Under the pieces are notes generated by a model that ran no database searches, had not been told where the DNA came from, and was given only the letters and a program-made list of their open reading frames with translations. A stretch of DNA of 64,000 nt from Kiritimatiellia bacterium (GTDB taxonomy: Bacteria; Verrucomicrobiota; Kiritimatiellia; RFP12; UBA1067). The stretch spans positions 7,928 to 71,927 of the forward strand of contig DAOPZC010000015.1 in assembly GCA_035353175.1 (NCBI GenBank), given 5' to 3'. Below are positions 6,567 through 44,442 of the stretch, one piece after another. Position 1 is the first letter of the stretch. Every line of letters begins with the position of its first letter. The position numbers were made by a program, and so were the translations under genes.

Positions 6567-6595
6567 ATGTTCCCGGATGGCGAAAGGGGTTCGGT

Positions 6596-7060: not shown

Positions 7061-7090
7061 AAAGAACGATGAGGGAGCGGAGAGTTCGGG

Positions 7091-9189: not shown

Positions 9190-9929
9190 CGGCCATTCAA
9201 GTCACCTGGGTGCGGGAGGTCAAGGCGTTCCGCGGCGCATTCTCGTGCGGCGTGCCGGTGGCCGCCTTTCTGGCCGCCTGCGGATGGACCTTCGTCGTGA
9301 CGCTGCGGCGCAACGAGGGCAGCGTTCTTCAGATCCAGAGCATCTGGGGACTTTCGATCGCACCTTGGCTGCCGATCTTGAGCGCGCTGCTGACGATGCG
9401 GCTTTTTGCGGAGGAGCGTTCGACGGGCATGATCGATCTGCTGATGTCCTCGCCGATCCGCGAGCGGGATCTGGTGATCGGTAAATTCCTTTCGGCGATG
9501 ACGGTCATGGCGGTGGCGTTGGCCCTGTCGCTGGTCGTGCCGCTGCTGGTGCTGCCGATGTTGTCGCTGCCGGTGCAGGGAACGGTTCGGGGCGTAGCGT
9601 TTGCGGCCACGTTTCTGATCCTGTTCCTGCAGGCGTCGACCTGGTGCGCGGCCGGAACGATGATTTCGGTGTTCTTCCGCAATCAGGCCGCGGCCGCCGT
9701 CAGTTCGCTGGTGCTGTGTAGCGGCATCCCGATCGTCGTGTACGCGGCCATCCTGGCGTGGGTGCCGTCGGTCCGGGCGGAAATGGCGTGGATGCCTTTC
9801 CTGGTCCACGTGTATGATTTTTCGACGGGGCTGTTTTCGACGTCCGTGATCGCACTGTATGGGGTCACGACGGTTTTCTTTCTGTTCGGCTGTTCAAAAT
9901 TGTTGGCGTGTCTGAGGTTGCGGGGTTGA
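9186..9929 (+). CDS. ABC-2 type transporter permease (GldF-like)
   Basis: There is an ATGA start/stop overlap with the ATPase gene. About six hydrophobic helices are visible. Confidence 0.7.
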   Translation: MTAIQVTWVREVKAFRGAFSCGVPVAAFLAACGWTFVVTLRRNEGSVLQIQSIWGLSIAPWLPILSALLTMRLFAEERSTGMIDLLMSSPIRERDLVIGKFLSAMTVMAVALALSLVVPLLVLPMLSLPVQGTVRGVAFAATFLILFLQASTWCAAGTMISVFFRNQAAAAVSSLVLCSGIPIVVYAAILAWVPSVRAEMAWMPFLVHVYDFSTGLFSTSVIALYGVTTVFFLFGCSKLLACLRLRG

Positions 9930-9933
9930 TGAC

Positions 9934-11436: not shown

Positions 11437-11445
11437 GAAGCGGTT

Positions 11446-18300: not shown

Positions 18301-18809
18301 AGCGTCTCGGCGGCGGAAAGCGTGGCGTCCGCGGTGGCGGCGTCGAGCGGCGAGGCTTCGAGGGCCGCGAGCGCGCCGGGCGTGGCGATGCGCCCCAGAT
18401 AAGTGAGGGCAGCTGAACGGACCGGTTCGGGTTTGGCGAGGTGCGCGATGGCCTGGGCCTCTGCGGCCGCGTCGCCGCGTCGCGCCAGAGCGCCGAACAG
18501 GCCGGCTTGCTCGCGGCCCGAGGTCGTGGCGAGCGCCGCGCGCAAGGCGGCGTCGGCCGCGGGAAGGCGCAGGGCTTCGAGCAGGAAGCAGGCGTTGTCA
18601 AAGGTCTCGGCCTGCGCGAGCTGTGCCGCGAGCAGCGGAATGGCGTCGGGCGTGGCGGTGGCGAGCAACGTCTGGCGGGCGGCGTCGCGTTCGGCGGGCG
18701 AGCCTGAGGCGAGCTGCCGGAGCAGCGCGGCCTCGTCGGCGAAGAGGGGATGAATGAAAAAGGCGGACAACAGGCAGAGGGCTGAAAGTGACGATGTGTG
18801 TGTACGCAT
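15369..18809 (-). CDS. Secreted multidomain protein: N-terminal HEAT repeats, seven FG-GAP/VCBS repeats (beta-propeller), C-terminal F5/8 type C (discoidin) domain
   Basis: The likely start is ATG 18809 (MRTHTSSLSALCLLSAFFIHPLFA, a signal peptide). FG-GAP calcium loops are visible: DFNGDGKPD, DVNKDGKPD, DIDGDGK, DLNGDGRPD, DVNKDGLND, DIDKDGNKE, DMDGDGDID. The discoidin-like tail is WHSA...WAEVKL...FVFR...ELEVYAQ. Confidence 0.8.
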   Translation of the reverse strand: MRTHTSSLSALCLLSAFFIHPLFADEAALLRQLASGSPAERDAARQTLLATATPDAIPLLAAQLAQAETFDNACFLLEALRLPAADAALRAALATTSGREQAGLFGALARRGDAAAEAQAIAHLAKPEPVRSAALTYLGRIATPGALAALEASPLDAATADATLSAAETLAARKALSQASGLYARLYRSTLPDHLRLAAFCGLIQADGDNAAALLPEGLGNASPVWRGTAARLTAQLPDKVLNKQGEKLMRSLPAEGRLALVSALVHAKKRAGAPLVRAAMANEADTTARLVAIAGIGDLGVADDAPALIALLGHTDPALADAARMSLIKLPDSATDARLVKALAKRPANAEALTRLLGIITFRKSEKAAPKLVSCLTDAAPAVRTAAFQALTELATEKQVPELFAAVCKATDDREKRAAEKALFACSRKYPEVATKAIAPLFAAADAALRRALLQALGIAGHADGLPLVQGALKDTDGEVADDAVRVLANWSAPAAATALLEQAKTHPKNSLRVVALRGFIRLAGKEPDLARRAAMLKAAAALATRAEEKQQLAAAWGTVPTPEAVAFLTAQLADAALRGEALKALKAVALHTPVDVPDSAPGSLLTPLTFVPHRLNAHRSEACAVADFNGDGKPDIAAGPYLYLAPDWKPVQIREVSTTVTDDGKGYADDFCNLVLDVNKDGKPDIVSGGWFSKTSFWFENTCGKNNGLWPVHTIDPLGNHETGTLEDIDGDGKALEFLPQSHITVWYEVGKGTNGEPTLVRHTVSEKKNVLGAGSGDLNGDGRPDIIRPDVWFEAPKDIRNGAWTEHPIALGTKDGKVDHTSNIIVFDVNKDGLNDILVSTAHKYGIFWYEQKRDAAGAIAWAPHVIDDTWSQPHYLCFADIDKDGNKEIVIGKRFMAHNGGDPDELGKQCVFYYRFTPGANPVFRKHVITYDEGIGAGLNTVAEDMDGDGDIDLVTTGKWGGPVLFENRMTEWVPDGERRAAFKAFTPSVSAEASYGDNLALAKRGAKASSDSELGGYKGCTAKLNDGVPASHSGIAATRWHSALTAMPHWAEVKLAKPAKVGRVIARFADPGGYATAFDVQVKQGDAYKTVFTTDKNGTAQAANVTFAPVETDTVRFVFRANANPAYPNAAQLGELEVYAQ

Positions 18810-18941
18810 GGAAGAGCCTCGATTTAGGAACAAGTGAAGGTGACCGGCATGCGGAAGACGTGTGTCGTGCGCGCTCCCCGAACGCGCCGTGAACGGCTCG
18901 GTAGGCCGTCCTTCCTGACAGGGAGGTGTCGTGCTCATTTG

Positions 18942-20518: not shown

Positions 20519-21334
20519 ATGAAAACGAGGATGAAGGCGTTGGTGGCGTTGGCGGCGATCGCCGGTTCGGTTTGTGCGCAGGAGTCCGCGGCGCCAGCCG
20601 CACCTGCTGTTGTGAAAGAAGAGGCTCCTGACACGGGATTGTCGTTCGATGCGACGTTGGACCTCTACTCGGCCTATGTGTGGCGCGGGTGCGTGCTCAA
20701 CGATGAGCCTGTGTGGCAGCCCGGCGCGACGGTCTCGTATGCGGCGGGCGACTACGGCACGTTCTCGGCCGGCGCGTGGGCGAACTTCAATGCGACGGAC
20801 CGCAACAGCAAGACGCACTTCGCCGGCATGGACGAGATCGACTACACGCTCGGCTACGCGGTCGATGTCGGTCCGGTGTCGCTGGGCGCGGGGCACATCT
20901 GGTACACCTTCCCGAGCATCAGTTCCGCGGATTACGCCGGCAGCACACGCGAAGTGTATGTCACGGCCGCCTACAACAACGACATCGTGACGCCCTTCGT
21001 CAAGGCCTACTACGACTACGAGTATGCCGAGGGAGTCTACGGCAACGCCGGTCTGACGAAGTCGATCGACGTGACCGATCAGTTCTCCGCGGGCGCCGAG
21101 GTCTCGGTGGGGGCGGGTGATAGCGACTACATGAACGCGTACTTCGGGACGGACGACGATGGGCTGGCCGATTTCAACGCGGCGGTCTTCTGCTCGTATG
21201 CGCTCACGGACAACCTGTCCATCGGCGCGCGGGTGGCTTGGATGTCGCTCATCGACAGCGATGCCCGCGACAACGAGGTCTACTGGGACGAAGATCTGCT
21301 GTGGGGCGGCATCAACCTCGCAGCCTCGTTCTAA
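20519..21334 (+). CDS. Outer-membrane beta-barrel protein, TorF/Gcw_chp-like putative porin
   Basis: It has the signal peptide MKALVALAAIAGSVCAQE and alternating beta-strand pattern. LYSAYVWRG and EIDYTLGY resemble the TIGR02001 family. The C-terminal residue is Phe. Confidence 0.65.
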   Translation: MKTRMKALVALAAIAGSVCAQESAAPAAPAVVKEEAPDTGLSFDATLDLYSAYVWRGCVLNDEPVWQPGATVSYAAGDYGTFSAGAWANFNATDRNSKTHFAGMDEIDYTLGYAVDVGPVSLGAGHIWYTFPSISSADYAGSTREVYVTAAYNNDIVTPFVKAYYDYEYAEGVYGNAGLTKSIDVTDQFSAGAEVSVGAGDSDYMNAYFGTDDDGLADFNAAVFCSYALTDNLSIGARVAWMSLIDSDARDNEVYWDEDLLWGGINLAASF

Positions 21335-27582: not shown

Positions 27583-27670
27583 GGGGCGATAATATAAAGA
27601 GGGACCGGGACCTTTACAAGACGGATGTCATGGGCCCTTCCTTTTTTTTATTTCTCTTTTTGCTTTGTCC

Positions 27671-27700
27671 TTGCATGACGGTGGCTGACGGATGTACAAT
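27671..27700 (+). promoter_or_regulatory. Sigma-70-like promoter candidate for the 27.8-35.2 kb operon
   Basis: TTGCAT (27671-27676), an 18-nt spacer, then TACAAT (27695-27700). It lies in an AT-richer 190-nt spacer divergent from purD. This is a motif match only. Confidence 0.35.
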
Positions 27701-27771
27701 CCGGCCACTGATTGGGAAAGATTTCTCTTTTCAAAGAGATGTTCAAAGGTTCTTATACGGAGACAAGCGCT

Positions 27772-29700
27772 ATGATGTCTACCAAAAAGCGGTTGGGCAA
27801 AACCGCCAAGGCGGGAGCGTTATGCGTACTCGCGTTGGCGCTGCAGGGTGACGTGTACGCGGCGGATTCGAGCGTTCCCCTTGAGTGGAATGTGGCTCCC
27901 ATGACCAACGGAGCGTATCTCGAATCGTTCGACGCCCTCTTGCCCGGTTGGGCCGGCGCTGTCGGTTTCAGTGCGGTGACCAACGTGTTCCCCTCGATGG
28001 CCGGATCTGCGCTTCCGGTTCGTTCGAACGCGTGGTTCGGTGCGAACGTCAAGGTTCTGCAGCTGGAGACCGGCGGGGAAGTGGTCTCCAACGCGCTGGC
28101 GCATTCGGATGCCTCCGCTGTGACGTTTGGGAGCCAGCCCGTCTATGTGGATCTGCGCATGAAGTTCGACCCGTTGGTCAATCCGCCGGATCAAGAGCTG
28201 CTGGCCAATTCCAAGATGGCGCTGTTCCTGACGTCCGAGGCCCGGCTGGTCGCGGTGCATGCGGACGGGGCGTCGACGAACGCCGCGCCGCTGGACACCA
28301 ACAAATGGTATCAGGTCACCGTGCGGTTGGAAGACGGCACGTTCGACGTGCTGCTCAACGATGCCGAGATCTTCGGCAACTTGACCCTCAAGGCCGTCGG
28401 CGCCGCCAACACGCTGGTGTCTGCCAATTTCTATGGCACAGGGCTGGTCGATGACCTTTATGTCAGCCACGGTAATCCCGCCTATCGGGTGCCGGGGCCG
28501 ACTGCGCCGATTCCCGATTTGCCGTCCGACGGGGCGAACCCGCCGACCGACGAGCAGCAGACCATGATCAACGCGTGGCTGAACGGGTACCCCGCGGTCA
28601 CGAAACTCAGCCTGACCCAAGACGAGCTCAGCACGGCGTACCTGTTGGGCGATTTGAACGTCGAGGACGGAACCAACGGCGTGGCCGGCGCCTACTCGTT
28701 CGGCATTTCGAAGATCGAAATGGTTTCGCCGACCAACCTGAATCTGACGGCCGCTTTGAAAGTCAACAACGCGGACAAATCCGGTTCGATCAACGGCCGA
28801 ATTCAGATCTACGGAAAAACCGAGATTGACGGTGTCTGGACGCTTTTGGAGGGCGCGATCACGCCGCTGTTCGCGAATTTCGTGAACGGCGAGGCGACGT
28901 ACAACTATCAGATCCCGAATCCCCCGGCCGGCACGATCATCTATGAGGAGGATTTCGACGGCATCGAGACCAGCAACACGGGTGACTCGCTGAATGCGGT
29001 CGGTTGGACGCTGAGTGAGCAGTTCACGAAAAGCAGCGCGCGCTATGCCATTAGCAACGGAAAGCTTTTTATCGACAACCTTGATCTCGCTAACCACACC
29101 TCGACCGATTCCTATGCCGTCGTCAAGTCAAGCGATTTCATGAAGACGTATTGCACGAACGATTACACCTATCAGTACGATGTCACCTATCGGGGTGCAT
29201 CGGGAACGAGCCCATCGGATTCCGGCTCGAGGTATGTGTCTCTGCTTTGCAACTACACCGGCACGAACGTCTACAACACGGCTGATCTCCGCTACGCCGG
29301 TAACGGTTACAATCAGGCGCGTTTCGGTGGCAGTTGGCCTCATTATGACGAAAGCGGCGCGCTCAATGCGACAGGTGCAAATTCCATGTTGTACAAACTG
29401 TTCGGCGAGCCTTTCGTGTCCTCAAGTGTAACGACGAACGCCCTGAAAAACAGGACCTGTACCATCCGCGTGGAAATGTCCATGCAGAACGGTCCAACCG
29501 TCTATGTCAATGGCCTGAAGGTTTCGGAGATGACGATCAATCAGGCGAACTGGACGGCTACGAAAGCTAACGGTAACTATGCGATCTGTTTCAAGCCGTC
29601 GCGCGACATTAAGGCCGAAATCGACAACATCAAGGTCTGGACCGGTTGCGGCGTGGAGCCCGGCGGGTATCGCTTCTTCAAGCCTGTGATCGTCCCCTAA
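27772..29700 (+). CDS. Secreted 642-aa protein A: two concanavalin/LamG-like jelly-roll modules flanking a Pro-rich linker and an Ig-like middle domain (function unknown)
   Basis: The likely start is ATG 27772 (MMSTKKRLGKTAKAGALCVLALALQGDVYA, a signal peptide) with GGAG 9 nt upstream. A LamG-like end-strand is seen twice (GTGLVDDLYVS and EIDNIKVWTG). The linker is RVPGPTAPIPDLPSDGANPPTDE. No catalytic motif was recognised. Confidence 0.6.
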   Translation: MMSTKKRLGKTAKAGALCVLALALQGDVYAADSSVPLEWNVAPMTNGAYLESFDALLPGWAGAVGFSAVTNVFPSMAGSALPVRSNAWFGANVKVLQLETGGEVVSNALAHSDASAVTFGSQPVYVDLRMKFDPLVNPPDQELLANSKMALFLTSEARLVAVHADGASTNAAPLDTNKWYQVTVRLEDGTFDVLLNDAEIFGNLTLKAVGAANTLVSANFYGTGLVDDLYVSHGNPAYRVPGPTAPIPDLPSDGANPPTDEQQTMINAWLNGYPAVTKLSLTQDELSTAYLLGDLNVEDGTNGVAGAYSFGISKIEMVSPTNLNLTAALKVNNADKSGSINGRIQIYGKTEIDGVWTLLEGAITPLFANFVNGEATYNYQIPNPPAGTIIYEEDFDGIETSNTGDSLNAVGWTLSEQFTKSSARYAISNGKLFIDNLDLANHTSTDSYAVVKSSDFMKTYCTNDYTYQYDVTYRGASGTSPSDSGSRYVSLLCNYTGTNVYNTADLRYAGNGYNQARFGGSWPHYDESGALNATGANSMLYKLFGEPFVSSSVTTNALKNRTCTIRVEMSMQNGPTVYVNGLKVSEMTINQANWTATKANGNYAICFKPSRDIKAEIDNIKVWTGCGVEPGGYRFFKPVIVP

Positions 29701-29722
29701 GGCCTTCTAAGGAGATATGGAA

Positions 29723-30490
29723 ATGAAAAAGACACTTTCACTGGTTAGCGGGCTTTTGTTGGCGGCGTCGGTTTTTGGAGCGGACGGGTTGGAGCAGTTG
29801 ACCCTTGCCATCTCGACCCCCGGGCCTGACACCTACGCGGACGGTTCGCCGGTCCTTGTGGGCGAGACCTATCTCTTGATCTACGTCAAGGCGGGAGCGA
29901 CCTTTCAGGGGCTGTATACGGACGGAACGCTGGTGGACCCCGAAAACAACAAGATCGCGATCAAAGCGTTTGCGGTCGAAGGGGCCAAGTGCGGCTACAC
30001 GCCGATTCAGTATCCGGCGGCGCTGTTCCCGGAGGGCGGCTCGTGGGTCGTCGTGGTGCTCGACACGCGCACCGCCGACGGGGCGGTCGGCGGTTTGGTG
30101 GCTGGGTTGGGGTCCGGCGTGACAACCGGCGCGGCCTCCGCGCAGTCCACCAGTTTGAACGCGGTGGGCGGGGCCGGAACGGCGGCGCTGAATGCCTCTG
30201 CGCAGACGCTGGCGTTTGCCGATGTGCCTGCGCCGGAGATCACCGCGGTGCGGCCGAACGGCGGCGCAGTCGACGTCCGGTTCAAGAATTTTTCTGAAAA
30301 GGCCCTTTACGAGGTGCAGAGCGCCACGGATCTCGCGGGGGAGTGGCAGACGGTCGCCACGCGCGTTCAGGCCACGGCTCTGAATGTCGTTCAGGGCGCG
30401 AATGGCGCGGAATTGCCGGCCACCGTGCAGGTGCCGGCCACCGACACCGTGCGCTTCTTCAAGGTGATTGTGCCGAACTCGGCGAAGTGA
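29723..30490 (+). CDS. Secreted protein B: N-terminal ~65-aa module shared with protein D, Gly/Ser/Thr/Ala linker, C-terminal beta-sandwich-like domain ending in RFFKVIVP
   Basis: AAGGAG lies 8 nt upstream of ATG 29723 (the track start 29717 is only 2 nt from the RBS). The signal peptide is MKKTLSLVSGLLLAASVFGA. See findings for module details. Confidence 0.6.
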   Translation: MKKTLSLVSGLLLAASVFGADGLEQLTLAISTPGPDTYADGSPVLVGETYLLIYVKAGATFQGLYTDGTLVDPENNKIAIKAFAVEGAKCGYTPIQYPAALFPEGGSWVVVVLDTRTADGAVGGLVAGLGSGVTTGAASAQSTSLNAVGGAGTAALNASAQTLAFADVPAPEITAVRPNGGAVDVRFKNFSEKALYEVQSATDLAGEWQTVATRVQATALNVVQGANGAELPATVQVPATDTVRFFKVIVPNSAK

Positions 30491-30515
30491 GCGAGCAAGC
30501 CTGAAAGGAAATGCC

Positions 30516-31340
30516 ATGAAAAAACTTTTGATGATCACAGCGGCGTTGGCGGTTGCCGGTTCAATTCGGGCGGGCATTCAGCCGCTTGAGGGCTCCAATG
30601 TCGTCGGTTTCGCGGAGGTCACGGCGCAAGGCGGAAAAAACACCATTATCACCGTGCCGTTCGAGTCGTGTCTGGGGAACGGTTCGGCGGGGATGTTGAG
30701 CGATCTGGTCGCGACCTGCGGGTTGACCGCTCATGCCTCCGATCCCGCGCAAGCCGACCAGTTGGTCGTGTTGACGACCAACGGTGCCACGCAGGTCTAT
30801 TATTATTATTACAACGATGCCGAGGATGGCTGGACTCCGATCACGTCGGCAATGCTGATGCCGGACGGGTCGAGCCAGGCGCTGACGCCGCCCGCCGCCA
30901 CCAATTTCCCGGTTGCGCGCGGTCTGGGTTTTTGGGTCAAGCGGATGGCCAGCACGGCTTCAACCCTCTATGTCAAGGGACAGGTTTCTTCCGCCAAGCA
31001 GGCCACGCCGATCAGCGCGGGCCTCAACCTGATCGGATACGGGGCTGTCGAGCCGTTCGCGCTCAACGGTGTCGACTGGACCGGCGCCTATGGTACCGGC
31101 GGCATCAGTTCGACGACGGACCGGATTCTGGTGGGGAACGGAGATGGCACGTATACGACGTACTACTATTACATCAAGAAAGACGGCGGTTCTTCGTATT
31201 ACGACCAGTTCACAAACAAATGGGTCAAGTCAACGTCGACGGGACCCGCGTTGCCCTCTTCGACGATCCCTGCAGGACAGGGGTTCTGGTATCACCGCCG
31301 GGGGGCCGGCGGCTTCACGTTCCGTCCGGACGGACAATAG
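30516..31340 (+). CDS. Secreted protein C with an internal tandem duplication (poly-Tyr strand plus GFW..R motif)
   Basis: ATG 30516 has AAAGGA upstream. The signal peptide is MKKLLMITAALAVAGSIRAG. Two ~70-aa repeats are visible. The fold is unknown, though it reminds me of small secreted families found only in Verrucomicrobia/Planctomycetes (not verified). Confidence 0.55.
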   Translation: MKKLLMITAALAVAGSIRAGIQPLEGSNVVGFAEVTAQGGKNTIITVPFESCLGNGSAGMLSDLVATCGLTAHASDPAQADQLVVLTTNGATQVYYYYYNDAEDGWTPITSAMLMPDGSSQALTPPAATNFPVARGLGFWVKRMASTASTLYVKGQVSSAKQATPISAGLNLIGYGAVEPFALNGVDWTGAYGTGGISSTTDRILVGNGDGTYTTYYYYIKKDGGSSYYDQFTNKWVKSTSTGPALPSSTIPAGQGFWYHRRGAGGFTFRPDGQ

Positions 31341-31356
31341 GAGGCAAAGGTTTACC

Positions 31357-31860
31357 ATGAAAAAATCAGTGTTGATTGCGCTTTTATTGACCGTGGGCAG
31401 CGTGATGACCTCGCAGGCGGTTGTGATCGGCTGGGCGGCTGAGGGATTGCCGTCCGGAACCGGGTACGCCCGGCTCGTTTATGTGGCCGACGGCTCAACG
31501 CCGGTTCTTACGGACGGGACTTGGTCCAGCGGCGTCGAGTTCATCAGCGAGCACGTCAGCGGTGCCGCGATTGACGGGACCACGCTGTATCCGCAGGAGT
31601 CGACGGACGGGACCCCGCGCGGCGCCGGCGCCTATTTCGTGGTGCTGTTCGATAGCGCGTACGCGAACTATACGGTCAGTACGACATCCATAACTTGGAT
31701 GGATGCCGCTTCAATCAGCACGAGTGATTTTGATCCCATCACCGGGTACTTCACGCCGAATTCTTTCGACGATTGGGCGCTGATTCCTGAGCCGAGCGTG
31801 GCCACATTGCTGGCGATTGGTGCGGCGGTGGCGGCGTTGAGGCGCAGAAAACACGTGTAA
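31357..31860 (+). CDS. PEP-CTERM-tailed secreted protein D
   Basis: AGGAGG lies upstream of ATG 31357. The signal peptide is MKKSVLIALLLTVGSVMTSQA. The C-terminus, IPEPSVATLLAIGAAVAALRRRKHV, has PEP, a TM helix and a basic cluster, which is the exosortase sorting signal. Confidence 0.8.
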   Translation: MKKSVLIALLLTVGSVMTSQAVVIGWAAEGLPSGTGYARLVYVADGSTPVLTDGTWSSGVEFISEHVSGAAIDGTTLYPQESTDGTPRGAGAYFVVLFDSAYANYTVSTTSITWMDAASISTSDFDPITGYFTPNSFDDWALIPEPSVATLLAIGAAVAALRRRKHV

Positions 31861-31869
31861 GATTTTCCT

Positions 31870-34800
31870 ATGCTGTTTCTGACGTTTCGTCCGATTACGC
31901 GTGGCCGGTTGCGTCGGTCGCGCGTTTTCTTTTTGGTCCTTTTTCTGGGGGCTTTGGCGTTCTACGGCCTAACCGTGGCGGCCGATGCTTTTCCCGGAGA
32001 CAGCGCGGCATGGATCGCGTGGGCGGCGGGTCTGGATGTGCGGGAGGTGCCGACCCATCCGCTGCTGACGGCGCTGGGTCACTGGGCGGCCGGACTCCCG
32101 TGTTTTTCCCTCGCGATGCGGCTGAATGCGCTGGCCGTGGTGGCCGGAGCCGTGGCGGTGGCGTTTGTCTTCAAGATCGTCTGGTTCCTTGTTTTCGAAT
32201 TGATGCGTGAGGAGTCCGCGGCTGCGCACGCTTCGAGGAACGCGACGTTCGGCGGTATTGTGGCCGCTTTTGCGGTGGCTGTCAGCCTTCCGTTCTGGCA
32301 TGCGGCCACCCGATTCCGCCCAGAGATCTTCGATGTCGCCTTTCTGTTGGCGTGCGCTCATCTTCTGACCGTTTACGCACGGTCTCAAAACCTGCTTTGG
32401 CTACTCCTGTTCGGCGTGCTCTATGGGGCCGGTGTCGCGGAATCGCCGCTCTTTATCGTCGCCGCTCCGATGATGGCCGTCTTCGCCGTCATCACTGAAT
32501 GGAAACTCTCCTGGTGCCGCATCGGCCGTTTGTTCGCTTCGGCTTGGCTTTCGCTGGCTGTGCTGGCGGGCGTCTATTACCTGTCGGCGCGGACTTTTGC
32601 CCTCGCGCACGATGAGACGCCGACGCTTCGGGCGCTCTTCCACATTGTGGTGCAGGTGTGGAGAGATCAGTTCGACGTGATCTCGAAGTTGGTGCCGCAA
32701 CGGCTATGGCTGCCGGTCGTTGTCCTGGGCGTCGGTTCCGCGGGCCTGTCGTTTTTTGCCGCGTTCAAGACGTTGGATAATCGTCGGTCGTGGAGCCTTT
32801 TTATCCTGAGTGCGCTGCTGACGGTGTTCGCGATTCTTCTGTTGTTCAATGCGCCTTTCTCTCCGTGGGGGGTGCTGGTTCCAAAAGGCGTTGTCCCCGT
32901 CGCCACGTATGCGTTGGCGGGGATGGGGATCGGGCTGCTGGCGGCTTCGTGGCGGGCGTTGGCGGTGCTCAACGACCCCTTGGATGTCGATTATCCGGAT
33001 GACGCGGAGGAGGCTGCGGGTGCGGAGGTCGCCTTGTCCGCTGCGCCTTCCCCCGCCATTTTTGCGGCCAGCCGGGGAACGGGATTGTTGGTGGTGCCGG
33101 CACTGCTCGTGTTGATGGCCGTGTCGGCCATTTTGAACGTCCGGCGGTTTTATGCCGATGACGGCGCCTTCGCGGACCGTGCGGCGGATGTCGTGCTGGA
33201 CGGGCTGCAAGGGCGGACATGGGTGGTTTCGAACGGCATGATCGATCCCAATCTGCTGATCCGCGCGCACGAGCGCGGAACGGCGATCCATCTGCTTTGC
33301 CCGTACCGTGCGCAGGAAAAGAACTATACGGCGCATGTCCTGCGGGCGATGAGGTCTGATGCGACTTTTTCCGAGAACGATAAGCTTCGGGCAGGAAGTC
33401 TGATCGCCTTCAACTTCCATTTGTTCATCGACGACTTGTTCGCCATGGATGAGGCCATCGGCAAGAAGGCCGTGTGCATGGGATTGCCGGACATCTGGTA
33501 CGGGGCGGGTGCCGTGCCGGTGCCGGAGCGGTTGTTCTTCGGCTGCGCCAAGAATGCTGACGAGTTGAAAGGTCGCGACCTGTTAACGGCTCACAAGACT
33601 TTATGGGATGCATGGGCGCCGTTTCTGGACGCCGGCGATGGCGCTCCGAGCCAGCTGTCCTATCGGCACCGCGTCGCGCTGCGGCGGCACTTCGCTTTTT
33701 TGGCGAACAATCTCGGCGTGACCTTGGACGACATCGGCCGGCCCGAGCAGGCGTTCGAATCCTATCAGAAAGCGCGTGCGATCTTCCCCGACAACATCAG
33801 CGCCCTACTCAACGTGTTCGACATGCTGTCGCGCGGCTACCATCCGGAGTTGAAGGATGCGGTTGAAAGACTTCTGCGCCAGAAGGTCGCGAATCCCCGC
33901 GACCGCTATCCGCTCTGGTCGCTGAGCAGGTATTACGGCTATGTGCGCAATTACGAAGTGTTCGTGAAGATGGGGTGGTCGTGGGCTTTGTCCAGCAGCC
34001 CGAGCTCCGTTCTGGCCGGTTTGCGCAACGCCTATTCGCTGCAGCAGGACGATGAGAAACGGGGGGCGCTGACGGCCATGATGGCGTCGATCTACGAGAT
34101 GCGCGGCGATTATCAGCTCAGCGCGTCCGAATACCGGAAAACGCTTCAGCGTGACCCGAAGAACACGTTCGCGATTTCGGGCCTGACCCGCCTGGCGCTC
34201 CAGCAGAGCGTGGTCGATGACGCGCGTAAGATCCTCGAAGCGGGCGAAGCCGCCGGCGCGTCGAAACGACAGCTCAGACAGGACTGGGCCGCGCTCTATC
34301 TGGTCGCCGGCGACTTGCCGCGGGCCCGCGTGGTGCTGCAGGAGATCTGCGAAGAACCGGACGCCTCGCCGATGGCGCTGGCGATGCTGGCGATGGTGAT
34401 GATTGAACAGCAGGACGTGGCGGCCGTCGAGTCCAAGGTTTTGCCGAGGCTGTCCAAAACCGCCGAGGGCAAGAATGCCTATTTCGTCCAGGTGATTCAG
34501 GGGCGGGTCTGGCAAAGCAAAGGCAAAGCCGGATACAAGAATGCGAGGCTCTGTTTTCAGCGCGCCGCGTTGATCCGGCCCGATGTGCAGGCATTGTCGG
34601 ACGTCTTGTTGATGTTCGATGTCCTGCTGGAGGATCAGAAATCCGCCGAAGCCCATGCGCTGTCGATCCTGCGGCAGCGGCCGGACCAGCCGTACGCGAA
34701 CTTCATCATGGGGTCGATCCGTCTGGAGCAGGGTCTGTACGGGGATGCGGAGACCTATCTGCGGCGCAGCGCGAACGGCGCCGCGCCAACGCTGGCCGCG

Positions 34801-35163
34801 CTCAACAACTATGCCCAAGTCCTCTGTCGCATCCGCAAATTGGAAGAGGCTGAGAAGGTCGCCCGACGGGCGGTTGAATTTTCGGCCGACCGTTACGAGG
34901 GATGGGCCACGCTGGCTTTCGTGCTTGCCGAAAAAGGGGATCCCGAGCATGCGGCAGAGTCGCTCGCGAAAGCCAGAAAGGCGAATGACCAGGACACGCG
35001 GTTGTATCTGGTGGACGCGTTGATCGCCGTCAAGCGAGGTGATCCTGATGCGGCCGAAAAGGCCCTCTCCTCGGTCGGAGGGGAATCGGAGCTTTCGGTG
35101 GCGGACCGGCGTGAATGGACGGGACTGCACGAGGAGATTGCACGTCTGCGCCGCGCGAAATAG
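31870..35163 (+). CDS. Polytopic membrane protein, DUF2723/TMEM260-like GT-C glycosyltransferase N-domain fused to C-terminal TPR repeats
   Basis: About eleven hydrophobic helices lie in aa 1-420. The first loop, FPGDSAAWIAWAAGL..THPLLTALG, resembles the DUF2723 (W)DSGE..HPPG region. The last ~470 aa have TPR-like pairs (AFESYQKARAIFPDN, EYRKTLQRDPKN, GWATLAFVLAEKGDPEHAAESLAKA). Confidence 0.6.
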   Translation: MLFLTFRPITRGRLRRSRVFFLVLFLGALAFYGLTVAADAFPGDSAAWIAWAAGLDVREVPTHPLLTALGHWAAGLPCFSLAMRLNALAVVAGAVAVAFVFKIVWFLVFELMREESAAAHASRNATFGGIVAAFAVAVSLPFWHAATRFRPEIFDVAFLLACAHLLTVYARSQNLLWLLLFGVLYGAGVAESPLFIVAAPMMAVFAVITEWKLSWCRIGRLFASAWLSLAVLAGVYYLSARTFALAHDETPTLRALFHIVVQVWRDQFDVISKLVPQRLWLPVVVLGVGSAGLSFFAAFKTLDNRRSWSLFILSALLTVFAILLLFNAPFSPWGVLVPKGVVPVATYALAGMGIGLLAASWRALAVLNDPLDVDYPDDAEEAAGAEVALSAAPSPAIFAASRGTGLLVVPALLVLMAVSAILNVRRFYADDGAFADRAADVVLDGLQGRTWVVSNGMIDPNLLIRAHERGTAIHLLCPYRAQEKNYTAHVLRAMRSDATFSENDKLRAGSLIAFNFHLFIDDLFAMDEAIGKKAVCMGLPDIWYGAGAVPVPERLFFGCAKNADELKGRDLLTAHKTLWDAWAPFLDAGDGAPSQLSYRHRVALRRHFAFLANNLGVTLDDIGRPEQAFESYQKARAIFPDNISALLNVFDMLSRGYHPELKDAVERLLRQKVANPRDRYPLWSLSRYYGYVRNYEVFVKMGWSWALSSSPSSVLAGLRNAYSLQQDDEKRGALTAMMASIYEMRGDYQLSASEYRKTLQRDPKNTFAISGLTRLALQQSVVDDARKILEAGEAAGASKRQLRQDWAALYLVAGDLPRARVVLQEICEEPDASPMALAMLAMVMIEQQDVAAVESKVLPRLSKTAEGKNAYFVQVIQGRVWQSKGKAGYKNARLCFQRAALIRPDVQALSDVLLMFDVLLEDQKSAEAHALSILRQRPDQPYANFIMGSIRLEQGLYGDAETYLRRSANGAAPTLAALNNYAQVLCRIRKLEEAEKVARRAVEFSADRYEGWATLAFVLAEKGDPEHAAESLAKARKANDQDTRLYLVDALIAVKRGDPDAAEKALSSVGGESELSVADRREWTGLHEEIARLRRAK

Positions 35164-35180: not shown

Positions 35181-38100
35181 ATGAAACGGATGTGTTTGCT
35201 CATCGCGGGCGTCTGCGCCGCGACGGTTACGGCAACGGCGCAACTGGGCGCGGAATTGATCGGCAACGGCGATCTCTCGAAACTCGATGAGAAGGGGTGG
35301 CCGGTGGGCTGGCCGGGCGGCCGTCAGGCGCGTGTCGAGAAGGATGTGGCCGGGAACCGGCTGGTGCTCGACGGGCCTGGCGCGGGCGTGAATTTCAAGA
35401 TTCCGCTCAAACCGGAGTACGGTCAGCTCAAGCTCGCCATGAAGATGAAGGTTACGGGCGTGACGCTCGGCAAGGAGAGCTGGCAGACCGGCCGCCTCAC
35501 GATGTCGTATCACAGCGCGGCGGGCGAGCGCGTGGGTGAGTGGCCGAACGTTTTCGGCCTGACCGGCACGTCGGAGTGGACCGACTGCGAGCGCGTCTAT
35601 CCGATCCCCACGAATGCGGTGACGCTGCAGATCAGCCCGTGCAACCTGGGCGCGGCGGGGCGCGTCGAGTTCCGGAACCTGTCGCTGACGGTCTGCCGCG
35701 TGCGCGCGCTGGTCAAGGCGGATGCGCCGCTGCCGCCGGGGGCGGAGGCGGCGCCGTGGAGCATCGGCGACGCGTGGCGGCAGACCACGCCGGCGCGCGA
35801 GCGGGTCTGCCTCAACGGTCTGTGGGGCTTCCGTCCGCTCATGAAAGGCGAGGCCGCCGGAGCCGTTCCGGCTGCGGGCGACTGCTGGGGTTGGTTCAAG
35901 GTGCCGGGCATCTGGCCGAACAACGGGCCCGAGTTCGAGACCGGCGCGCAGACGGTCTGGCTCGCGCCGTGGCTGGAGGAACGGGGCGGCGCGGCGGCGT
36001 TCGACCAGGCGTGGTACAAGCGGCGCTTCACCGTGCCGCAGGCGTGGGCCGGCCGCCGCGTCGCGCTCGACTTCACGATGCTGCAGACGCACGCCAAGGC
36101 CTATGTGGACGGCGTGGCGTGTGGCGAGCTGTGGTATCCGGGCGGCGAGCTGGAGCTGACCGGCGCGCTCAAGTCGGGCGCCGAGCAGGAGCTGGCGCTG
36201 CTGGTGACGGCGCGCCCGCTGACCACCGAGCGCAACGCGTTCATGGCGCCGGACCGCATCATCACCGACAAGGCCAGCGTGAAGCTCAAAGGCATCACCG
36301 GCGACCTTTTCCTCTGCGCCATGCCGGCCGCGGCGCGGCTCGAGGACGTGCAGGTCATCACCTCGGTCAAAGACGGGGCCATCACGTTCGCAACGGAGGG
36401 CGAGGGACTGGGGACGGGGAGTTACCGGCTGCGCGCGGAGGTGACGGGCTGCGGCGAGGCGAAGCGCGTGTTCGAGTCCGGCGCGCTGACGCCCGACGCG
36501 GCGGGCACGCTGCGCTTCACGGCGGCTTGGGCGGACGCGAAGCGATGGGACACCGACACGCCGCAGAACCGCTACACGGCGACGCTGACGCTGAGCGATG
36601 CGGCGGGCCAGGCGCTGGACACGCTGACGCCGGTGAGCTTCGGTTTCCGTGAGATCCGCATCCAGGGGCGCGACTTCGTGTTGAACGGCGCGCCGGTCCA
36701 TCTGCGCGCGCTGTACAACAACAGCGCGAACGGCAGCGCCGATAAGGCCGGCAAGGCCGCCGCGCGCGAGCTCTGCCGGCGCATGGCCGAGTACGGGTTC
36801 AACGCGCTGATCGCCGGCAACTACGATTTCACGCCGGGTTCGGTGGGCTATCTCGACGGTCTATTGGAGGCGTGCGACGAGAAGGGCATGCTGATGGCCT
36901 TCTCGTTGCCGCACATGAAAGATTTCGGCTACAAGCTGGATGATCCCAAGACGGCCGAGCTCTACCGCAAGCAGACCGCGTGGCTGATCCGGCGCGCGCG
37001 GAATCATCCCGCGGTGATTTTCTATGCGCTGAACCACAACAGCACCGGGTACTACGGCGATCAGAATCCGATGAAGATCGATGGCGTGTACGAGATTCCC
37101 GAAGTCGAGGCCACCAAAAACATGTGGTGGGCTCGCAACCGTAAACAGGCGCGCCTCACGGATGCCATCGCCAAGGCGATCGATCCCACGCGGCCGGTCT
37201 ACCACCATCAGTCGGGCAACTTGGGCGACATGCACACGGTGAACTGTTACCTCAACTGGGCGCCGGTGCAGGAGCGCAGCGACTGGACCGAACACTGGTC
37301 CACGCAAGGCGTCAAGCCGCTTTTCTTCGTGGAATGGGGGCTGCCGCACATTTCGAGCTGGTCGAGTTACCGCGGGCCGCAGTTCATCTGGCGCTGCGAG
37401 GCGTTCCAGAGCCTGTGGGCGGCCGAATTCGCGGCGCAGTTCTGGGGTGACGCGGCGTATCTCGACGACGACGCGGCGGTCAAGGCGCTGGACCACGAGG
37501 CGGCGCTGTGGGCCAGGGGCAAACCTTTCGCGTGGAGCACGCTCAATCAGCCGCTGCGTAATCTGCCGCAGAACTATACGGGCGTGCAGGCCCTTTTCGC
37601 GAACGACAACTGGCGCTCGCACCGCGCGTGGGGAGTGTCGGCGATGCTGCCGTGGGATCAGGGCGATTTTTGGCGGCGCATGGCGGCGACGCCGACGGCG
37701 GAGGTGCCCGACGCGCTCAAGGGCCTCAAATGCCCGGGACTGATGCCTGACCGCACGCAGCCGGGCGGGCAGTACATCCAGGACCTGGGCGTGCCCGAAG
37801 CCTTCGAGCCGACCGCGATCGGCAAGGCGATGCTGCGCTGGAACATGCAGGACTGCGCGTTCATCGGCGGACCTGCCGAGATGTTCACGTCGAAGGAGCA
37901 TCTTTTCCCTTCGGGCGCAACGGTGAAGAAGAGTCTGGTGGTGCTCAATGATCGGCGCCGCAAACAGAGCGTGGCGTGGACCTGGCGGCTGTGGAATAAG
38001 GGAGACAAACTGATCGAGAAGTCCGGCACGATCGAGGTGGCGGCCGGCGGCAAAGCGGTTGTGCCTGTGGAATTCACGCTTCCGAAGAAGGCTCGGGACG

Positions 38101-39530
38101 GCGAGGGGTATCGGCTGACCGCGGTGTTCAACTTTGAAGGCGGGGCGACGCAGGTGGACGAACTGGCGGTGACGGCGGTGAAGCCGCCGGCCAAACCGGT
38201 CTTGGCCAAGCCGGTGCTGCTCTACGATCCCGCCGGGTTGACCGCCAAGGTGTTTGACCGCCTGCAGGTCCCGTATTCGGCCTTCGACGGGGGCCGCGCG
38301 CCGGCCTTGGACGAGGTGGTCGTGATCGGCCGCGAGGCGTTGGACGAGAAGGGTATCCAGTGGTTGCCCAAGGTCGCCGATGGCGCGCGGGTGCTGGTGT
38401 TCGAGCAGCGGGCGGCGGTGCTGGAAAGGTTGCTCGGATTCCGCATCGCGGAGCGCGGAGCGCGGCGGCTTTTCACGCGCTTTGCGCATCCCGTGACGCA
38501 GCCGTTCGACGATGCGTGCTTCCGTGACTGGACTGGCTCGGCGACGTTGCTGCCGCCGCATCTGGGCGGGCTGCCCGAGGCGGAGACGCACGATCCGAAG
38601 TGGAGGTGGTGCGGTTTCGAGAACACGCATGTCTGGCGATGCGGGAGCCGAGGCAACGTGGCGTCGGTCCTGATCGAGAAGCCGGCGAAGGGCGACTGGC
38701 GGGCGCTGGTCGACGGCGAGTTCGATCTCCAGTACGCCGCTCTCTTGGAGAACGTGGAGGGTCGGGGGCGCGTGATCTTCTGCCAGTTGGATGTGACGGG
38801 GCGCACCGAGAACGATCCGGTGGCCGACCGGCTGGTGGTGAACCTTCTGGACTATCTTGACCGGGCGCAAGCCGAGACCAAACGGGCGACCGTCGGGTTG
38901 GGCGGAGTGTGCGAGACACTGCTGCGCGGTATGGGGGTGGTCGCGGTCCCGGACGGTGTGGAGAAGACGAGTGCCTCCGGGCGGCTGCTGGTGGCCGGGC
39001 CGGGTGCGGTGCCGCCGCAGGGGCTTGCTCAGGCCGTGGAACAGGGAATGAACGTCCTGTGTCTGGGGCTGAGCGACGCGGATCTTCAGGCGTGGTGTCC
39101 GGTGCCGGTTGCGACCGTGCGCACGAACGCGTGCTTCGCGCGCATCGAACGGCGGCCTTCAGAACTGAACGGGCTCTGCAACGCCGATTGGGCGTGGCAC
39201 GGGAGGATGACCTTCGACGCGCTGGCTGTGCCGGAGGGCGAGCGGGCGTCGGCGAGCCCGGCGCTGCGCGTGATCCGTCACGGGAAAGGCCGCGTGGTGC
39301 TGTGGCAGGTCCCGCCGTGGCAGATCGACGAAAAGGCCAAGCCCTATCTGCGCACCAGCAAGCGGCATGCGAACGCGATGGCGGCGCGGCTCCTGGCCAA
39401 TCTCGGCGCCGGATTCAAGACGCCGCTGGCCGAACGTTTCGCGGTGCCGGTCGCGAAGGCGTGGCTGAACAGCTGCTATCTCGACGTCCCCGAGGCTGGC
39501 GACGATCCCTACCGATATTACCGCTGGTAG
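35181..39530 (+). CDS. Secreted 1449-aa GH2-like multidomain protein (CBM-like N-domain, GH2 sugar-binding domain, divergent TIM barrel, large C-terminal extension)
   Basis: The signal peptide is MKRMCLLIAGVCAATVTATAQ. The CBM4/9-like module is ELIGNGDLS...RVEFRNLSL. The GH2_N pattern is AWYKRRFTVPQAWAGRRVALDFTMLQTHAKAYVDGV. The barrel has FFVEWG (nucleophile-like), but NHPAVIFYALNHN replaces the NE acid/base motif. Confidence 0.65.
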   Translation: MKRMCLLIAGVCAATVTATAQLGAELIGNGDLSKLDEKGWPVGWPGGRQARVEKDVAGNRLVLDGPGAGVNFKIPLKPEYGQLKLAMKMKVTGVTLGKESWQTGRLTMSYHSAAGERVGEWPNVFGLTGTSEWTDCERVYPIPTNAVTLQISPCNLGAAGRVEFRNLSLTVCRVRALVKADAPLPPGAEAAPWSIGDAWRQTTPARERVCLNGLWGFRPLMKGEAAGAVPAAGDCWGWFKVPGIWPNNGPEFETGAQTVWLAPWLEERGGAAAFDQAWYKRRFTVPQAWAGRRVALDFTMLQTHAKAYVDGVACGELWYPGGELELTGALKSGAEQELALLVTARPLTTERNAFMAPDRIITDKASVKLKGITGDLFLCAMPAAARLEDVQVITSVKDGAITFATEGEGLGTGSYRLRAEVTGCGEAKRVFESGALTPDAAGTLRFTAAWADAKRWDTDTPQNRYTATLTLSDAAGQALDTLTPVSFGFREIRIQGRDFVLNGAPVHLRALYNNSANGSADKAGKAAARELCRRMAEYGFNALIAGNYDFTPGSVGYLDGLLEACDEKGMLMAFSLPHMKDFGYKLDDPKTAELYRKQTAWLIRRARNHPAVIFYALNHNSTGYYGDQNPMKIDGVYEIPEVEATKNMWWARNRKQARLTDAIAKAIDPTRPVYHHQSGNLGDMHTVNCYLNWAPVQERSDWTEHWSTQGVKPLFFVEWGLPHISSWSSYRGPQFIWRCEAFQSLWAAEFAAQFWGDAAYLDDDAAVKALDHEAALWARGKPFAWSTLNQPLRNLPQNYTGVQALFANDNWRSHRAWGVSAMLPWDQGDFWRRMAATPTAEVPDALKGLKCPGLMPDRTQPGGQYIQDLGVPEAFEPTAIGKAMLRWNMQDCAFIGGPAEMFTSKEHLFPSGATVKKSLVVLNDRRRKQSVAWTWRLWNKGDKLIEKSGTIEVAAGGKAVVPVEFTLPKKARDGEGYRLTAVFNFEGGATQVDELAVTAVKPPAKPVLAKPVLLYDPAGLTAKVFDRLQVPYSAFDGGRAPALDEVVVIGREALDEKGIQWLPKVADGARVLVFEQRAAVLERLLGFRIAERGARRLFTRFAHPVTQPFDDACFRDWTGSATLLPPHLGGLPEAETHDPKWRWCGFENTHVWRCGSRGNVASVLIEKPAKGDWRALVDGEFDLQYAALLENVEGRGRVIFCQLDVTGRTENDPVADRLVVNLLDYLDRAQAETKRATVGLGGVCETLLRGMGVVAVPDGVEKTSASGRLLVAGPGAVPPQGLAQAVEQGMNVLCLGLSDADLQAWCPVPVATVRTNACFARIERRPSELNGLCNADWAWHGRMTFDALAVPEGERASASPALRVIRHGKGRVVLWQVPPWQIDEKAKPYLRTSKRHANAMAARLLANLGAGFKTPLAERFAVPVAKAWLNSCYLDVPEAGDDPYRYYRW

Positions 39531-43519: not shown

Positions 43520-43707
43520 GCCCGCATATCATACCTGTCGGCCCGCGGTCCCGCAACCCCGTCCCGCTGCGGCGGGTGACGGCCGCGGCTCGGTCAAAAC
43601 TCGGTTATTCCGGTTTACAGGAGGGGAGGGGTAAGGTAAAATCATGAGATTACGATAAAAAATCGCTTAGCGCCGCATCAGGCGCGATCACGGGAAAGGA
43701 TGGGTTG

Positions 43708-44442
43708 ATGAAAAAAACGAGTGTTGTTCCCAACGTGCTGGTCGGCATGATGGTTGCCGGTTTGGGCGCGGGGATGGTGGGGCTGACGACGGGGTGTTCG
43801 ACGGCGTGTTGCGGATGCAAGGCTAACAAGGAGACGATCCAGATGAAGAGCGCGGATTTCTATAAGGATGGGAAGTTCGATGGTGCGAAGGCCAAGCAGG
43901 CCTATTTCGACATGATGACCCGGTTCAACGTGCCGGTCTACGGCGCGCTGAAAAAGGACGACAATTTCTTTTGGGCGGTCGATTTCGCCAAGGGCGATTT
44001 CGCCTCGTTCGGCATGGGCGGCGTGATTTGGGTGAATGAGAAGGCGGAGGGCTATTTCGGGCATGAGATCTATCTGCTCCCGAACCAGAGCATCGCCGAA
44101 CACCGCCATTTGCCCACGGCGGACAAGGACGGCAAGGCCATCCGCTGCAAGATCGAGAGTTGGCAGGTGCGCCACGGTTATGTGTATGGATTCAGCGAGG
44201 TCGGCGAGCCCAATCTCGACACGTATCCGGAAGCCAAGGCGATGCTGTCCAAAGTCCAGATCCCGCACCTCAAGAGCGTGCATGTCGAGCGGTGGGAAGC
44301 CGATGGCTCGATCCACAAGCTGCCCGCGCCCGAGACGTGGCACTTCATGATGGGCGGTAAGGACGGGGCGATTGTGACCGAGTACGCGACGTACCACGAC
44401 GGCGCGGGCCTGCGTTTCTCGGTGCCGGGAGTGGGTTTCTAA
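43708..44442 (+). CDS. Cupin protein of the D-lyxose/D-mannose ketol-isomerase family with an N-terminal signal/lipobox-like anchor
   Basis: The track start 43705 is TTG; ATG 43708 follows GAAAGGA. The N-terminus is MKKTSVVPNVLVGMMVAGLGAGMVGLTTGC. The body parallels lyxose isomerases: WAVDFAKGDFASFG, HEIYLLPNQSIAEHRH, LPAPETWHFMMGG. Confidence 0.55.
   Translation: MKKTSVVPNVLVGMMVAGLGAGMVGLTTGCSTACCGCKANKETIQMKSADFYKDGKFDGAKAKQAYFDMMTRFNVPVYGALKKDDNFFWAVDFAKGDFASFGMGGVIWVNEKAEGYFGHEIYLLPNQSIAEHRHLPTADKDGKAIRCKIESWQVRHGYVYGFSEVGEPNLDTYPEAKAMLSKVQIPHLKSVHVERWEADGSIHKLPAPETWHFMMGGKDGAIVTEYATYHDGAGLRFSVPGVGF

Follow-up and report, generated by a model that had tools for sequence, protein, structure and literature searches.

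A 64,000-nucleotide stretch of the Kiritimatiellia bacterium contig DAOPZC010000015.1 (hereafter the window, the whole 64 kb that was analysed) carries five closely packed genes, A to E, which are oriented divergently from purD and encode four secreted proteins followed by a polytopic membrane protein with tetratricopeptide repeats (TPRs) (Table 1). All five plus-strand open reading frames (ORFs) lie where a first-pass annotation of the sequence had placed them, with gaps of 22, 25, 16 and 9 nt, and independent gene callers predict the same genes in six public contigs, from metagenomes or metagenome-assembled genomes (MAGs), that encode an identical E. A, B and D each have a GGAG-type Shine–Dalgarno site upstream, and C has a weaker one, GGAA. 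The start of E lies 9 nt past the D stop codon and lacks a GGAG-type site of its own, which would fit translational coupling of D and E. The classic signal peptides ascribed to A–D were likewise borne out: all four leaders, read directly from the sequence, are of the n-h-c type (A, MMSTKKRLGK...VYA/AD; B, MKKTLSLV...VFG/AD; C, MKKLL...IRA/G; D, MKKSV...SQA/V), and the predicted local distance difference test score (pLDDT) of AlphaFold2 models falls below 50 exactly over the leaders of B (residues 1–21) and C (residues 1–25), as fits cleaved signal peptides.

Table 1 Features of the A–E cassette, its encoded domains, its leader and the gene that follows it (window coordinates)
Feature	Position	Strand	Description
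Gene A	27772-29700	+	642 aa, secreted; ORF with signal peptide
Gene B	29723-30490	+	255 aa, secreted
Gene C	30516-31340	+	274 aa, secreted
Gene D	31357-31860	+	167 aa, secreted, small, beta-rich, PEP-CTERM tail
Gene E	31870-35163	+	1097 aa, polytopic membrane protein with TPRs
Lineage-specific insertion in A	28918..29661	+	~248 aa, residues ~383-630, weakly ConA/LamG-like
PEP-CTERM sorting tail of D	31783-31851	+	residues 143-165; IPEPSVATLLAIGAAVAALRRRKHV
Membrane domain of E	31870..33141	+	residues 1-424; TMEM260/GT117-like GT-C module; PF11028
Post-membrane domain of E	33142..33696	+	residues ~425-608; alpha/beta character judged by eye
TPR solenoid and tail of E	33697..35163	+	repeats at residues ~610-1070
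GH2-like gene F	35181-39530	+	1449 aa, secreted; Glyco_hydro_2_C, distant beta-galactosidase models
Promoter-like pair TTGCAT-18 nt-TACAAT	27671..27700	+	TTGCAT 27671-27676; TACAAT 27695-27700
Conserved motif CTGATTGGG	27708-27716		just after the -10-like box; family form (C/T)GATTG(G/A)
5' untranslated region hairpin TCTCTT-TTCA-AAGAGA	27724..27739	+	between the CTGATTGGG motif and the Shine–Dalgarno site
Shine–Dalgarno site GGAGA of A	27759-27763		

By E of the cassette we mean the protein throughout, and statistical expectation values are written out as E values. On the basis of Pfam and of a profile match to a solved structure, E is a TMEM260/GT117-type protein. It had been described from the sequence as about eleven transmembrane (TM) helices resembling DUF2723/TMEM260 proteins, followed by TPRs, and this description stands: E scores 37.2 bits against a gathering threshold of 24.2 for PF11028 (TMEM260-like, formerly DUF2723) over residues 44–212 and profile positions 1–176 of 179, its hydropathy indicates ~10–12 TM segments within residues 19–424, and many TPR families match a region of ~460 aa (for example TPR_2 with an E value of 4.8e-16 and TPR_19 with 1.3e-14). 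Most E orthologues also carry a precomputed PF11028 match. A profile of 11 diverse E N-domains matched human TMEM260 (9rql_A) with an E value of 2.8e-4 over query residues 23–197, the only PDB family found besides chance-level matches. Full-length E retrieved only TPR proteins among PDB sequences, including the TPRs of OGT and designed TPRs, and a PDB profile search with the post-membrane domain likewise returned TPRs only; E has, in addition, a weak PMT_2 match (E value 0.012).

TMEM260 is a client-specific O-mannosyltransferase that depends on dolichyl-phosphate-mannose, modifies Ig-like IPT domains and uses its TPR to bind one strand of the client domain in an extended, unfolded state (PMC10214176; 10.64898/2026.03.17.711096). 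It has an eleven-helix fold of the glycosyltransferase C (GT-C) type with a donor tunnel (PDB 9rql, 9rqm and 9rqn; CAZy GT117). Its essential residues are H67, which contacts mannose, R264, Y267 and the luminal catalytic base D441 (PMC10214176; 10.64898/2026.03.17.711096), and a D52A variant is inactive while D52E retains ~20% activity (10.64898/2026.03.17.711096). Alignment of E with TMEM260 places D44 (in FPGDSA) at D52 of GGDSGE, E59 at H67, and R84 and N86 at the Arg and Asn of YRVNLL; together with D56, E191 and R306 these are the landmarks of the membrane domain. Across 54 E homologues, P42, G43, P64, R84, N86, E114, E191, S192, R306 and W361 are each kept by 95% or more, and D56 and E59 are acidic in 50 and 51, respectively. 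E191 is apparently kept even in distant E-like proteins of ~800 aa (ASETPL, SGEY; read by eye), and in the post-membrane segment D459, within NG(L/M)ID, is invariant in 11 diverse homologues. Given that the PF11028 threshold is exceeded, H67 is absent and D52 is equivocal, we file E as a divergent TMEM260-like protein rather than as a demonstrated O-mannosyltransferase.

Proteins A–D are secreted and apparently non-catalytic; B and C are predicted to be beta-sandwich proteins and D to be beta-rich. No catalytic motif had been recognized in them by eye, and Pfam and NCBIfam scans agree in giving no enzyme family. The same scans allay the concern that A–D might be ordinary accessory proteins of the carbohydrate-active enzyme (CAZyme) or SusD-like kind, since no CAZyme, SusD or other family was found in A–D except the PEP-CTERM of D; a concanavalin A (ConA)-like match in A is sub-threshold. 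In the NCBIfam scan A–C had no match at E values ≤0.1, and D matched PEP-CTERM models only.

B carries an invariant STPGPDxYADG motif and ends in VRFFKVIVP, and none of its 91 homologue clusters has a Pfam domain of its own. Its AlphaFold2 model predicts two Ig-like sandwiches (pLDDT 86.6; predicted template modelling score (pTM) 0.81), and that of C predicts an all-beta, two-lobed beta-sandwich pair (pLDDT 84.4, pTM 0.78). An internal duplication had been proposed for C, and profile comparison agrees: its halves are homologous (hhalign probability 95%, E value 2.5e-8), each ending in GxGFW.(K/R)R. C represents a large family with no precomputed Pfam domain in 103 homologue clusters; its profile found 1875 representatives at E values ≤1e-3 in a library clustered at 50% identity, most of them stand-alone proteins of 240–295 aa and some forming the C-terminus of proteins of 430–1713 aa. 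A specific structural homologue of B or C was rejected because Foldseek gave no match at E values ≤1e-3, either for B against PDB (weak matches to Fab, FN3 receptors and a streptococcal ancillary pilin only) or for C against PDB and BFVD; the two proteins' searches returned generic jelly-roll, Fab and FN3 folds. The beta-sandwich modules earlier ascribed to A–D are supported by the models of B and C, and D appears beta-rich. The module said to be shared by B and D is not supported, with BLASTP E values of 0.6–1 and an hhalign probability below 10% that matches only the signal peptides. Shared modules between A and C and between A and B were also rejected at the sequence-profile level (hhalign probability <30%, signal peptides only).

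A comprises a conserved N-terminal region of ~382 aa and a C-terminal beta-sandwich that ends in YRFFKPVIVP. Its orthologues measure 385–544 aa, and 18 of them gave no Pfam match apart from the window protein's insertion. In the orthologue alignment this insertion is unique to the window protein; it immediately precedes the last beta-strand of the C-terminal domain and has sub-cut-off matches to Laminin_G_3 (E value 7.6e-4, residues 553–624) and 3keto-disac_hyd (E value 4.5e-3). The lectin-like character once assigned to A is weak, being based on this sub-threshold Laminin_G_3 match, which lies in the lineage-specific insertion. The A orthologue at locus L017 carries different insertions elsewhere in the protein; such lineage-specific insertions are as expected of an exposed tip. 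A motif of the form (R/K)FF(K/R)xx(I/V) terminates A, B and the giant protein of locus L104 (below), and in the B model it forms the last strand of the C-terminal beta-sandwich.

The PEP-CTERM tail noted in D was upheld at 18.2 bits by NCBIfam TIGR02595 (cut-off 16) and just missed the cut-off of Pfam PF07589 (18.5 bits; cut-off 20.7). The tail (IPEPS...RRRK), with its PEP motif, TM helix and basic cluster, is conserved in orthologues; D is the sole PEP-CTERM-like ORF in the window, and D-like PEP-CTERM proteins follow C-like proteins at many loci. We also considered the Verru_Chthon cassette proteins A–D (TIGR02596–02600), a four-gene cassette of the Planctomycetes–Verrucomicrobia–Chlamydiae (PVC) group; membership was rejected, as none of these models matched and the N-termini are ordinary Sec signal peptides, not prepilin-type.

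We scanned metagenomes with an alignment of C and annotated the 79 loci obtained with hidden Markov models built from our own alignments; 63 of these carry a core-type C. Where the contigs at these 63 loci leave enough room, D is present at 47 of 47, B at 43 of 43, E at 26 of 26 and A at 25 of 25. The A–B–C–D–E order is kept in six related MAG species (tblastn; identity 62–72% for E and 39–70% for A–D), and C homologues at 41% and 47% identity show the same five-gene arrangement within wholly different flanks. At other loci the flanks are housekeeping genes (groEL/dnaK, purA, the gene for GTPase Der and tRNA synthetase genes). The first-pass annotation had staked its reading on the synteny of A–E homologues, and the order is complete in every informative locus; complete synteny with differing flanks marks a co-inherited unit, not a chance cluster. 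The same or related genes occur in anaerobic-digester and other metagenomes and in MAGs labelled Kiritimatiellae/Kiritimatiellia or 'uncultured Lentisphaeraceae'.

Distant loci distinguish a constant from a changeable part of this unit. In other lineages the A slot is filled by adhesin-like proteins of 1,300–4,900 aa, or the C module is fused at their C-terminus. At locus L104, a 2205-aa protein with SdrD_B/SpaA-type repeats precedes B, C, a D with a PEP-CTERM tail and an E of full length with PF11028 and TPRs; at L105, a 1332-aa protein with a C-like C-terminus precedes D, B and an E-like TPR protein of 736 aa. At L098, L103 and L100/L101, proteins of ~800–860 aa with multiple TM segments, TPRs and a TDGxxD motif are encoded beside large proteins with a C-like C-terminus or within a few kb of them. 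As B, C, D and E-like genes are kept while the A slot changes, B–C–D–E is the conserved core and A is a variable secreted protein in a cargo slot. The self-contained module first proposed holds in that its five genes are co-inherited between differing flanks, but the set is better described as a B–C–D–E core with a variable A.

Giant secreted proteins with a C-terminus related to the C module (L018, 1–9401; L020, 3060–7934; L092, 3865–8421; L100, 954–8789) range from 1,500 to >4,900 aa, are almost all Pfam-free and precede D-like PEP-CTERM and/or B-like genes. Locus L102 of a low-GC organism (5451–12068; GC 0.40) encodes a 1031-aa Big_1/invasin-like protein with a C-like end, then a 1170-aa Peptidase_C25 (gingipain-family) protein, which suggests that organisms outside the PVC group employ the C-like module in another sorting context. 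At L021 (5252–16108), an E homologue of 30% identity reads AYPGLPAA, with Leu replacing the D52-equivalent acid, and the genes after it encode an 855-aa L-type-lectin/PATR protein and a 1586-aa PKD/PQQ protein.

Comparison with described systems puts E closest to TMEM260. The two share a layout of polytopic GT-C-type N-domain, post-membrane domain and C-terminal TPR; they also align at the PG-D-S motif that follows TM1 and at the R-x-N motif ahead of TM2. TMEM260 clients are Ig-like beta-sandwiches, and the neighbours of E include the predicted beta-sandwich proteins B and C. In contrast to TMEM260, E is bacterial and longer (1097 versus 707 aa, with a TPR region of ~460 versus ~140 aa), its family lacks a conserved D52 equivalent and has a conserved Glu for H67, and neither the Rossmann-like domain nor D441 is recognisable; it would need a polyprenyl-phosphate sugar of bacterial origin as donor, and its candidate clients are encoded in the same cassette. 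In function, the nearest analogues of E are the TMTC enzymes and the Sec-coupled PMT enzymes. TMTCs also combine a GT-C core with TPRs and serve beta-sandwich cadherin domains (PMC10214176). In TMTC1–4 (GT105) and PMT/POMT (GT39), the GT-C core acts extracytoplasmically on newly translocated proteins, as we propose for E, but neither group has a significant sequence match with it. Actinobacterial Pmt acts on Sec-exported proteins, PMTs use MIR domains rather than TPRs, and we know of no TMTC or PMT/POMT in a fixed cassette with its clients.

D resembles substrates of the PEP-CTERM/exosortase (EpsH/XrtA) system in its signal peptide, PEP motif, TM helix and basic cluster, and the TPR lipoprotein PrsT gives the best NCBIfam score of the E TPR region, though far below cut-off (74.6 versus 312 bits). 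Unlike that system, the cassette is accompanied by no exosortase, PrsK/PrsR or exopolysaccharide (EPS) genes, either in the flanks or anywhere in the window; E is of the polytopic GT-C type and not a TPR lipoprotein, and B and C have no counterpart there. O-oligosaccharyltransferases can be encoded beside their pilin substrate, as is PilO/TfpO beside pilA in Pseudomonas aeruginosa. This pairing, too, sets the gene of a polytopic membrane glycosyltransferase beside that of a secreted structural protein it modifies, a relation that is presumptive here; PilO/TfpO differs in being Wzy_C/O-antigen-ligase-like, in lacking TPRs, in having type IV pilins as clients and in transferring oligosaccharide en bloc.

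We tentatively favour, with a little less than even confidence, the reading that the cassette is an envelope display module in which the TPR/GT-C protein E captures the proteins encoded beside it and glycosylates or matures them; from its sequence and the analogy with TMEM260 we infer that E may glycosylate A–D. In this mechanism A–D would be exported through Sec as unfolded chains, and E would be an inner-membrane protein with a periplasmic TPR solenoid, capturing extended segments of its neighbours as TMEM260 does with IPT domains. E would then move these clients past its membrane-embedded site, where a sugar might pass from a polyprenyl-phosphate donor to Ser/Thr, or where the chains might simply be held and matured. 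The folded beta-sandwich proteins would assemble into a surface structure with D, processed via PEP-CTERM/exosortase, as its anchor, B and C as a stalk or adaptor, and A as a distal exposed tip that is possibly carbohydrate-binding. Client recruitment by the TPR of E would have a direct precedent in the binding of Ig-like IPT segments by the TMEM260 TPR, and the properties of the neighbours (secreted and non-catalytic throughout, beta-sandwich in B and C, PEP-CTERM in D) fit the role of clients. The export function originally attributed to the module is weakened, E itself being no exporter. Doubtful, though a genuine candidate, is the further step of seeing in B–C–D–E a previously undescribed PVC surface display apparatus, with the GT-C-derived, TPR-rich E as a dedicated maturation and assembly factor, acting through glycosylation or non-catalytically, for a PEP-CTERM-anchored B/C/D stalk and interchangeable cargo. 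The cargo would then range from the 385–642-aa lectin-like A proteins to adhesins of >4,900 aa with a C-like C-terminus, and the (R/K)FF(K/R)xx(I/V) beta-sandwich ending would be a docking or sorting element.

A number of observations weigh against capture and modification of the neighbours by E. The distant C/D/B cassettes L018, L020, L023, L089 and L092 have no adjacent E-like gene, such variants comprising either a giant (>4925 aa or 1624 aa) with D-like/B-like genes or a C-like/PEP-CTERM pair alone; conversely, E homologues at 28–30% identity (L021 and L022) have no A–D-like neighbours. The window encodes no exosortase, sugar-donor synthase or outer-membrane export component, and an exosortase was not found in the flanks of related loci either. 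Similarity of E to TMEM260 is detectable only over residues ~23–197, and the Rossmann-like domain and D441 are unmatched; compared directly with TMEM260 residues 407–549, the E post-membrane domain gave an hhalign probability of 0.3%. H67 is replaced by E59, a position with Glu or Asp in 51 of 54 homologues. Position 44, equivalent to D52, is acidic in just 24 of 54 E homologues (D12, E12, V5, A5, N4, H4, R4 and others) and 13 of 35 metagenome copies, and is Pro in the full-length E of L104. These substitutions favour the main rival, which we judge unlikely: that E is an inactive GT-C descendant, a pseudoenzyme serving as a membrane-anchored TPR scaffold or holdase, which transfers no sugar but receives A–D at the Sec exit, keeps them assembly-competent and passes them to exosortase or surface assembly. 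Free variation at a position where D52A kills TMEM260, and the replacement of H67, would be natural in such a protein; a TPR region about three times the TMEM260 length is as expected if binding is the main job, and strict synteny is as compatible with a dedicated chaperone as with an enzyme. A mere anchor would, however, hardly account for the near-invariant R84, N86, E114, E191 and R306 and the acidic D56 and E59, or for the persistence of some charged membrane-domain residues in very distant E-like proteins. The window's own E, moreover, keeps Asp at 44, and the residual activity of TMEM260 D52E means that Glu variants may still be active.

Two further readings are less likely. GT-C enzymes include many lipid and polysaccharide transferases, and E could act on a non-protein acceptor (an exopolysaccharide, a lipid-linked glycan or lipid A/lipopolysaccharide), with A–D binding or organizing the polymer. 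Such a role would accord with the association of PEP-CTERM systems with EPS loci and production (PMC1569441), with the weakly ConA/LamG-like insertion in A and with a sugar-recognition motif in E that differs from that of TMEM260. We nevertheless find it improbable, given that neither the cassette nor its varied flanks contain EPS biosynthesis, flippase, polymerase or export genes, that the only recognisable relative of E is a protein O-mannosyltransferase and that TPR arrays on GT-C cores, in TMTC and TMEM260, serve protein clients. Very improbable, in our assessment, is a glycan-capture accessory of polysaccharide degradation, SusE/F-like and tied to the GH2-like protein F. In its favour, this secreted 1449-aa protein is encoded directly after E, a sulfatase and another GH2 protein are encoded elsewhere in the window, and A has its weak ConA-like domain; against it, synteny of the GH2 gene extends no further than the closest relative, other loci have housekeeping flanks, A–D show no SusC/SusD, carbohydrate-binding module or CAZyme signature, and the A slot elsewhere holds SdrD_B/SpaA-type adhesin repeats. 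Pfam and NCBIfam searches of A–E and their neighbours found no SusC-like TonB-dependent transporter or SusD, and the locus does not qualify as a polysaccharide utilization locus.

The leader of A appears to hold a real promoter and structured RNA. The promoter-like pair reported upstream of A is present; a consensus promoter scan did not list it, as it is too weak, with 3/6 in the first hexamer. By phylogenetic footprinting, 17 of 20 orthologous loci have a TTGnnn-N16-19-TAnnnT pair 85–106 nt upstream of the start codon of A, and in most orthologous loci a 5–7-bp hairpin stands at the same leader position, with stem sequences that differ between lineages. Conservation of the pair, the motif, the hairpin and GGAGA across loci supports this interpretation, and the elements at 27708–27763 might serve as an operator, or act at the RNA level in stability or regulation.

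At the other end of the cassette, the 17-nt gap between E and F contains no terminator, and the transcription unit in this genome may extend into the GH2-like gene. F, whose C-terminal ~800 aa are without annotation, was considered as a cassette member and rejected; we exclude it from the system because its synteny is limited to the closest relative, L007. Otherwise the window consists of ordinary chromosomal genes (tuf, nusG, rplK, rplA, rpoB, pur genes, pfk, a sulfatase and GH2 genes), with no EPS genes and no paralogue of A–D. Elsewhere in it, a plus-strand cluster at 8464–13290 encodes an ABC ATPase, an ABC-2 permease, ABC_transp_aux (PF09822) and DUF4340, presumably resembling auxiliary ABC systems of the GldA/F/G type. 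Unusual domain combinations are seen in a sulfatase fused to HEAT repeats (13360–15258, plus strand) and in a 1189-aa FG-GAP/HEAT/F5_F8 type C protein (15369–18938, minus strand). Three plus-strand ORFs well supported by third-position GC content (GC3) have no Pfam match at E values ≤1e-5 (2808–4733, 641 aa; 20519–21334, 271 aa; 43705–44442, 245 aa).

TMEM260/GT117 was recognized as an enzyme in 2023, and its structure appeared in 2026 (PMC10214176; 10.64898/2026.03.17.711096). The literature searched on DUF2723/GT117 and on PEP-CTERM in Kiritimatiellota describes neither this gene set nor a function for bacterial GT117, in keeping with the initial judgement that no described system has these genes. 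From its sequence, the cassette is the first candidate bacterial enzyme-plus-clients set for the TMEM260 family, in which a GT-C/TPR protein of a client-specific type appears hard-wired to presumptive clients and a PEP-CTERM anchor. It amounts to a natural experiment, in which a bacterial member of the family is permanently joined by four candidate clients that are small, secreted and easily expressed, and it makes directly testable both client recognition by GT-C/TPR proteins and whether catalysis can be lost in the family while a chaperone role is retained. B, C and the D-type partners each define a new protein family, with ~1,900 representatives at 50% identity for the C family. The recurrence of the B, C and D families with giant adhesin-like proteins points to an unrecognized way of building or anchoring surface structures, which would concern Kiritimatiellia and related uncultured polysaccharide-degrading anaerobes in digesters, sediments and lakes.

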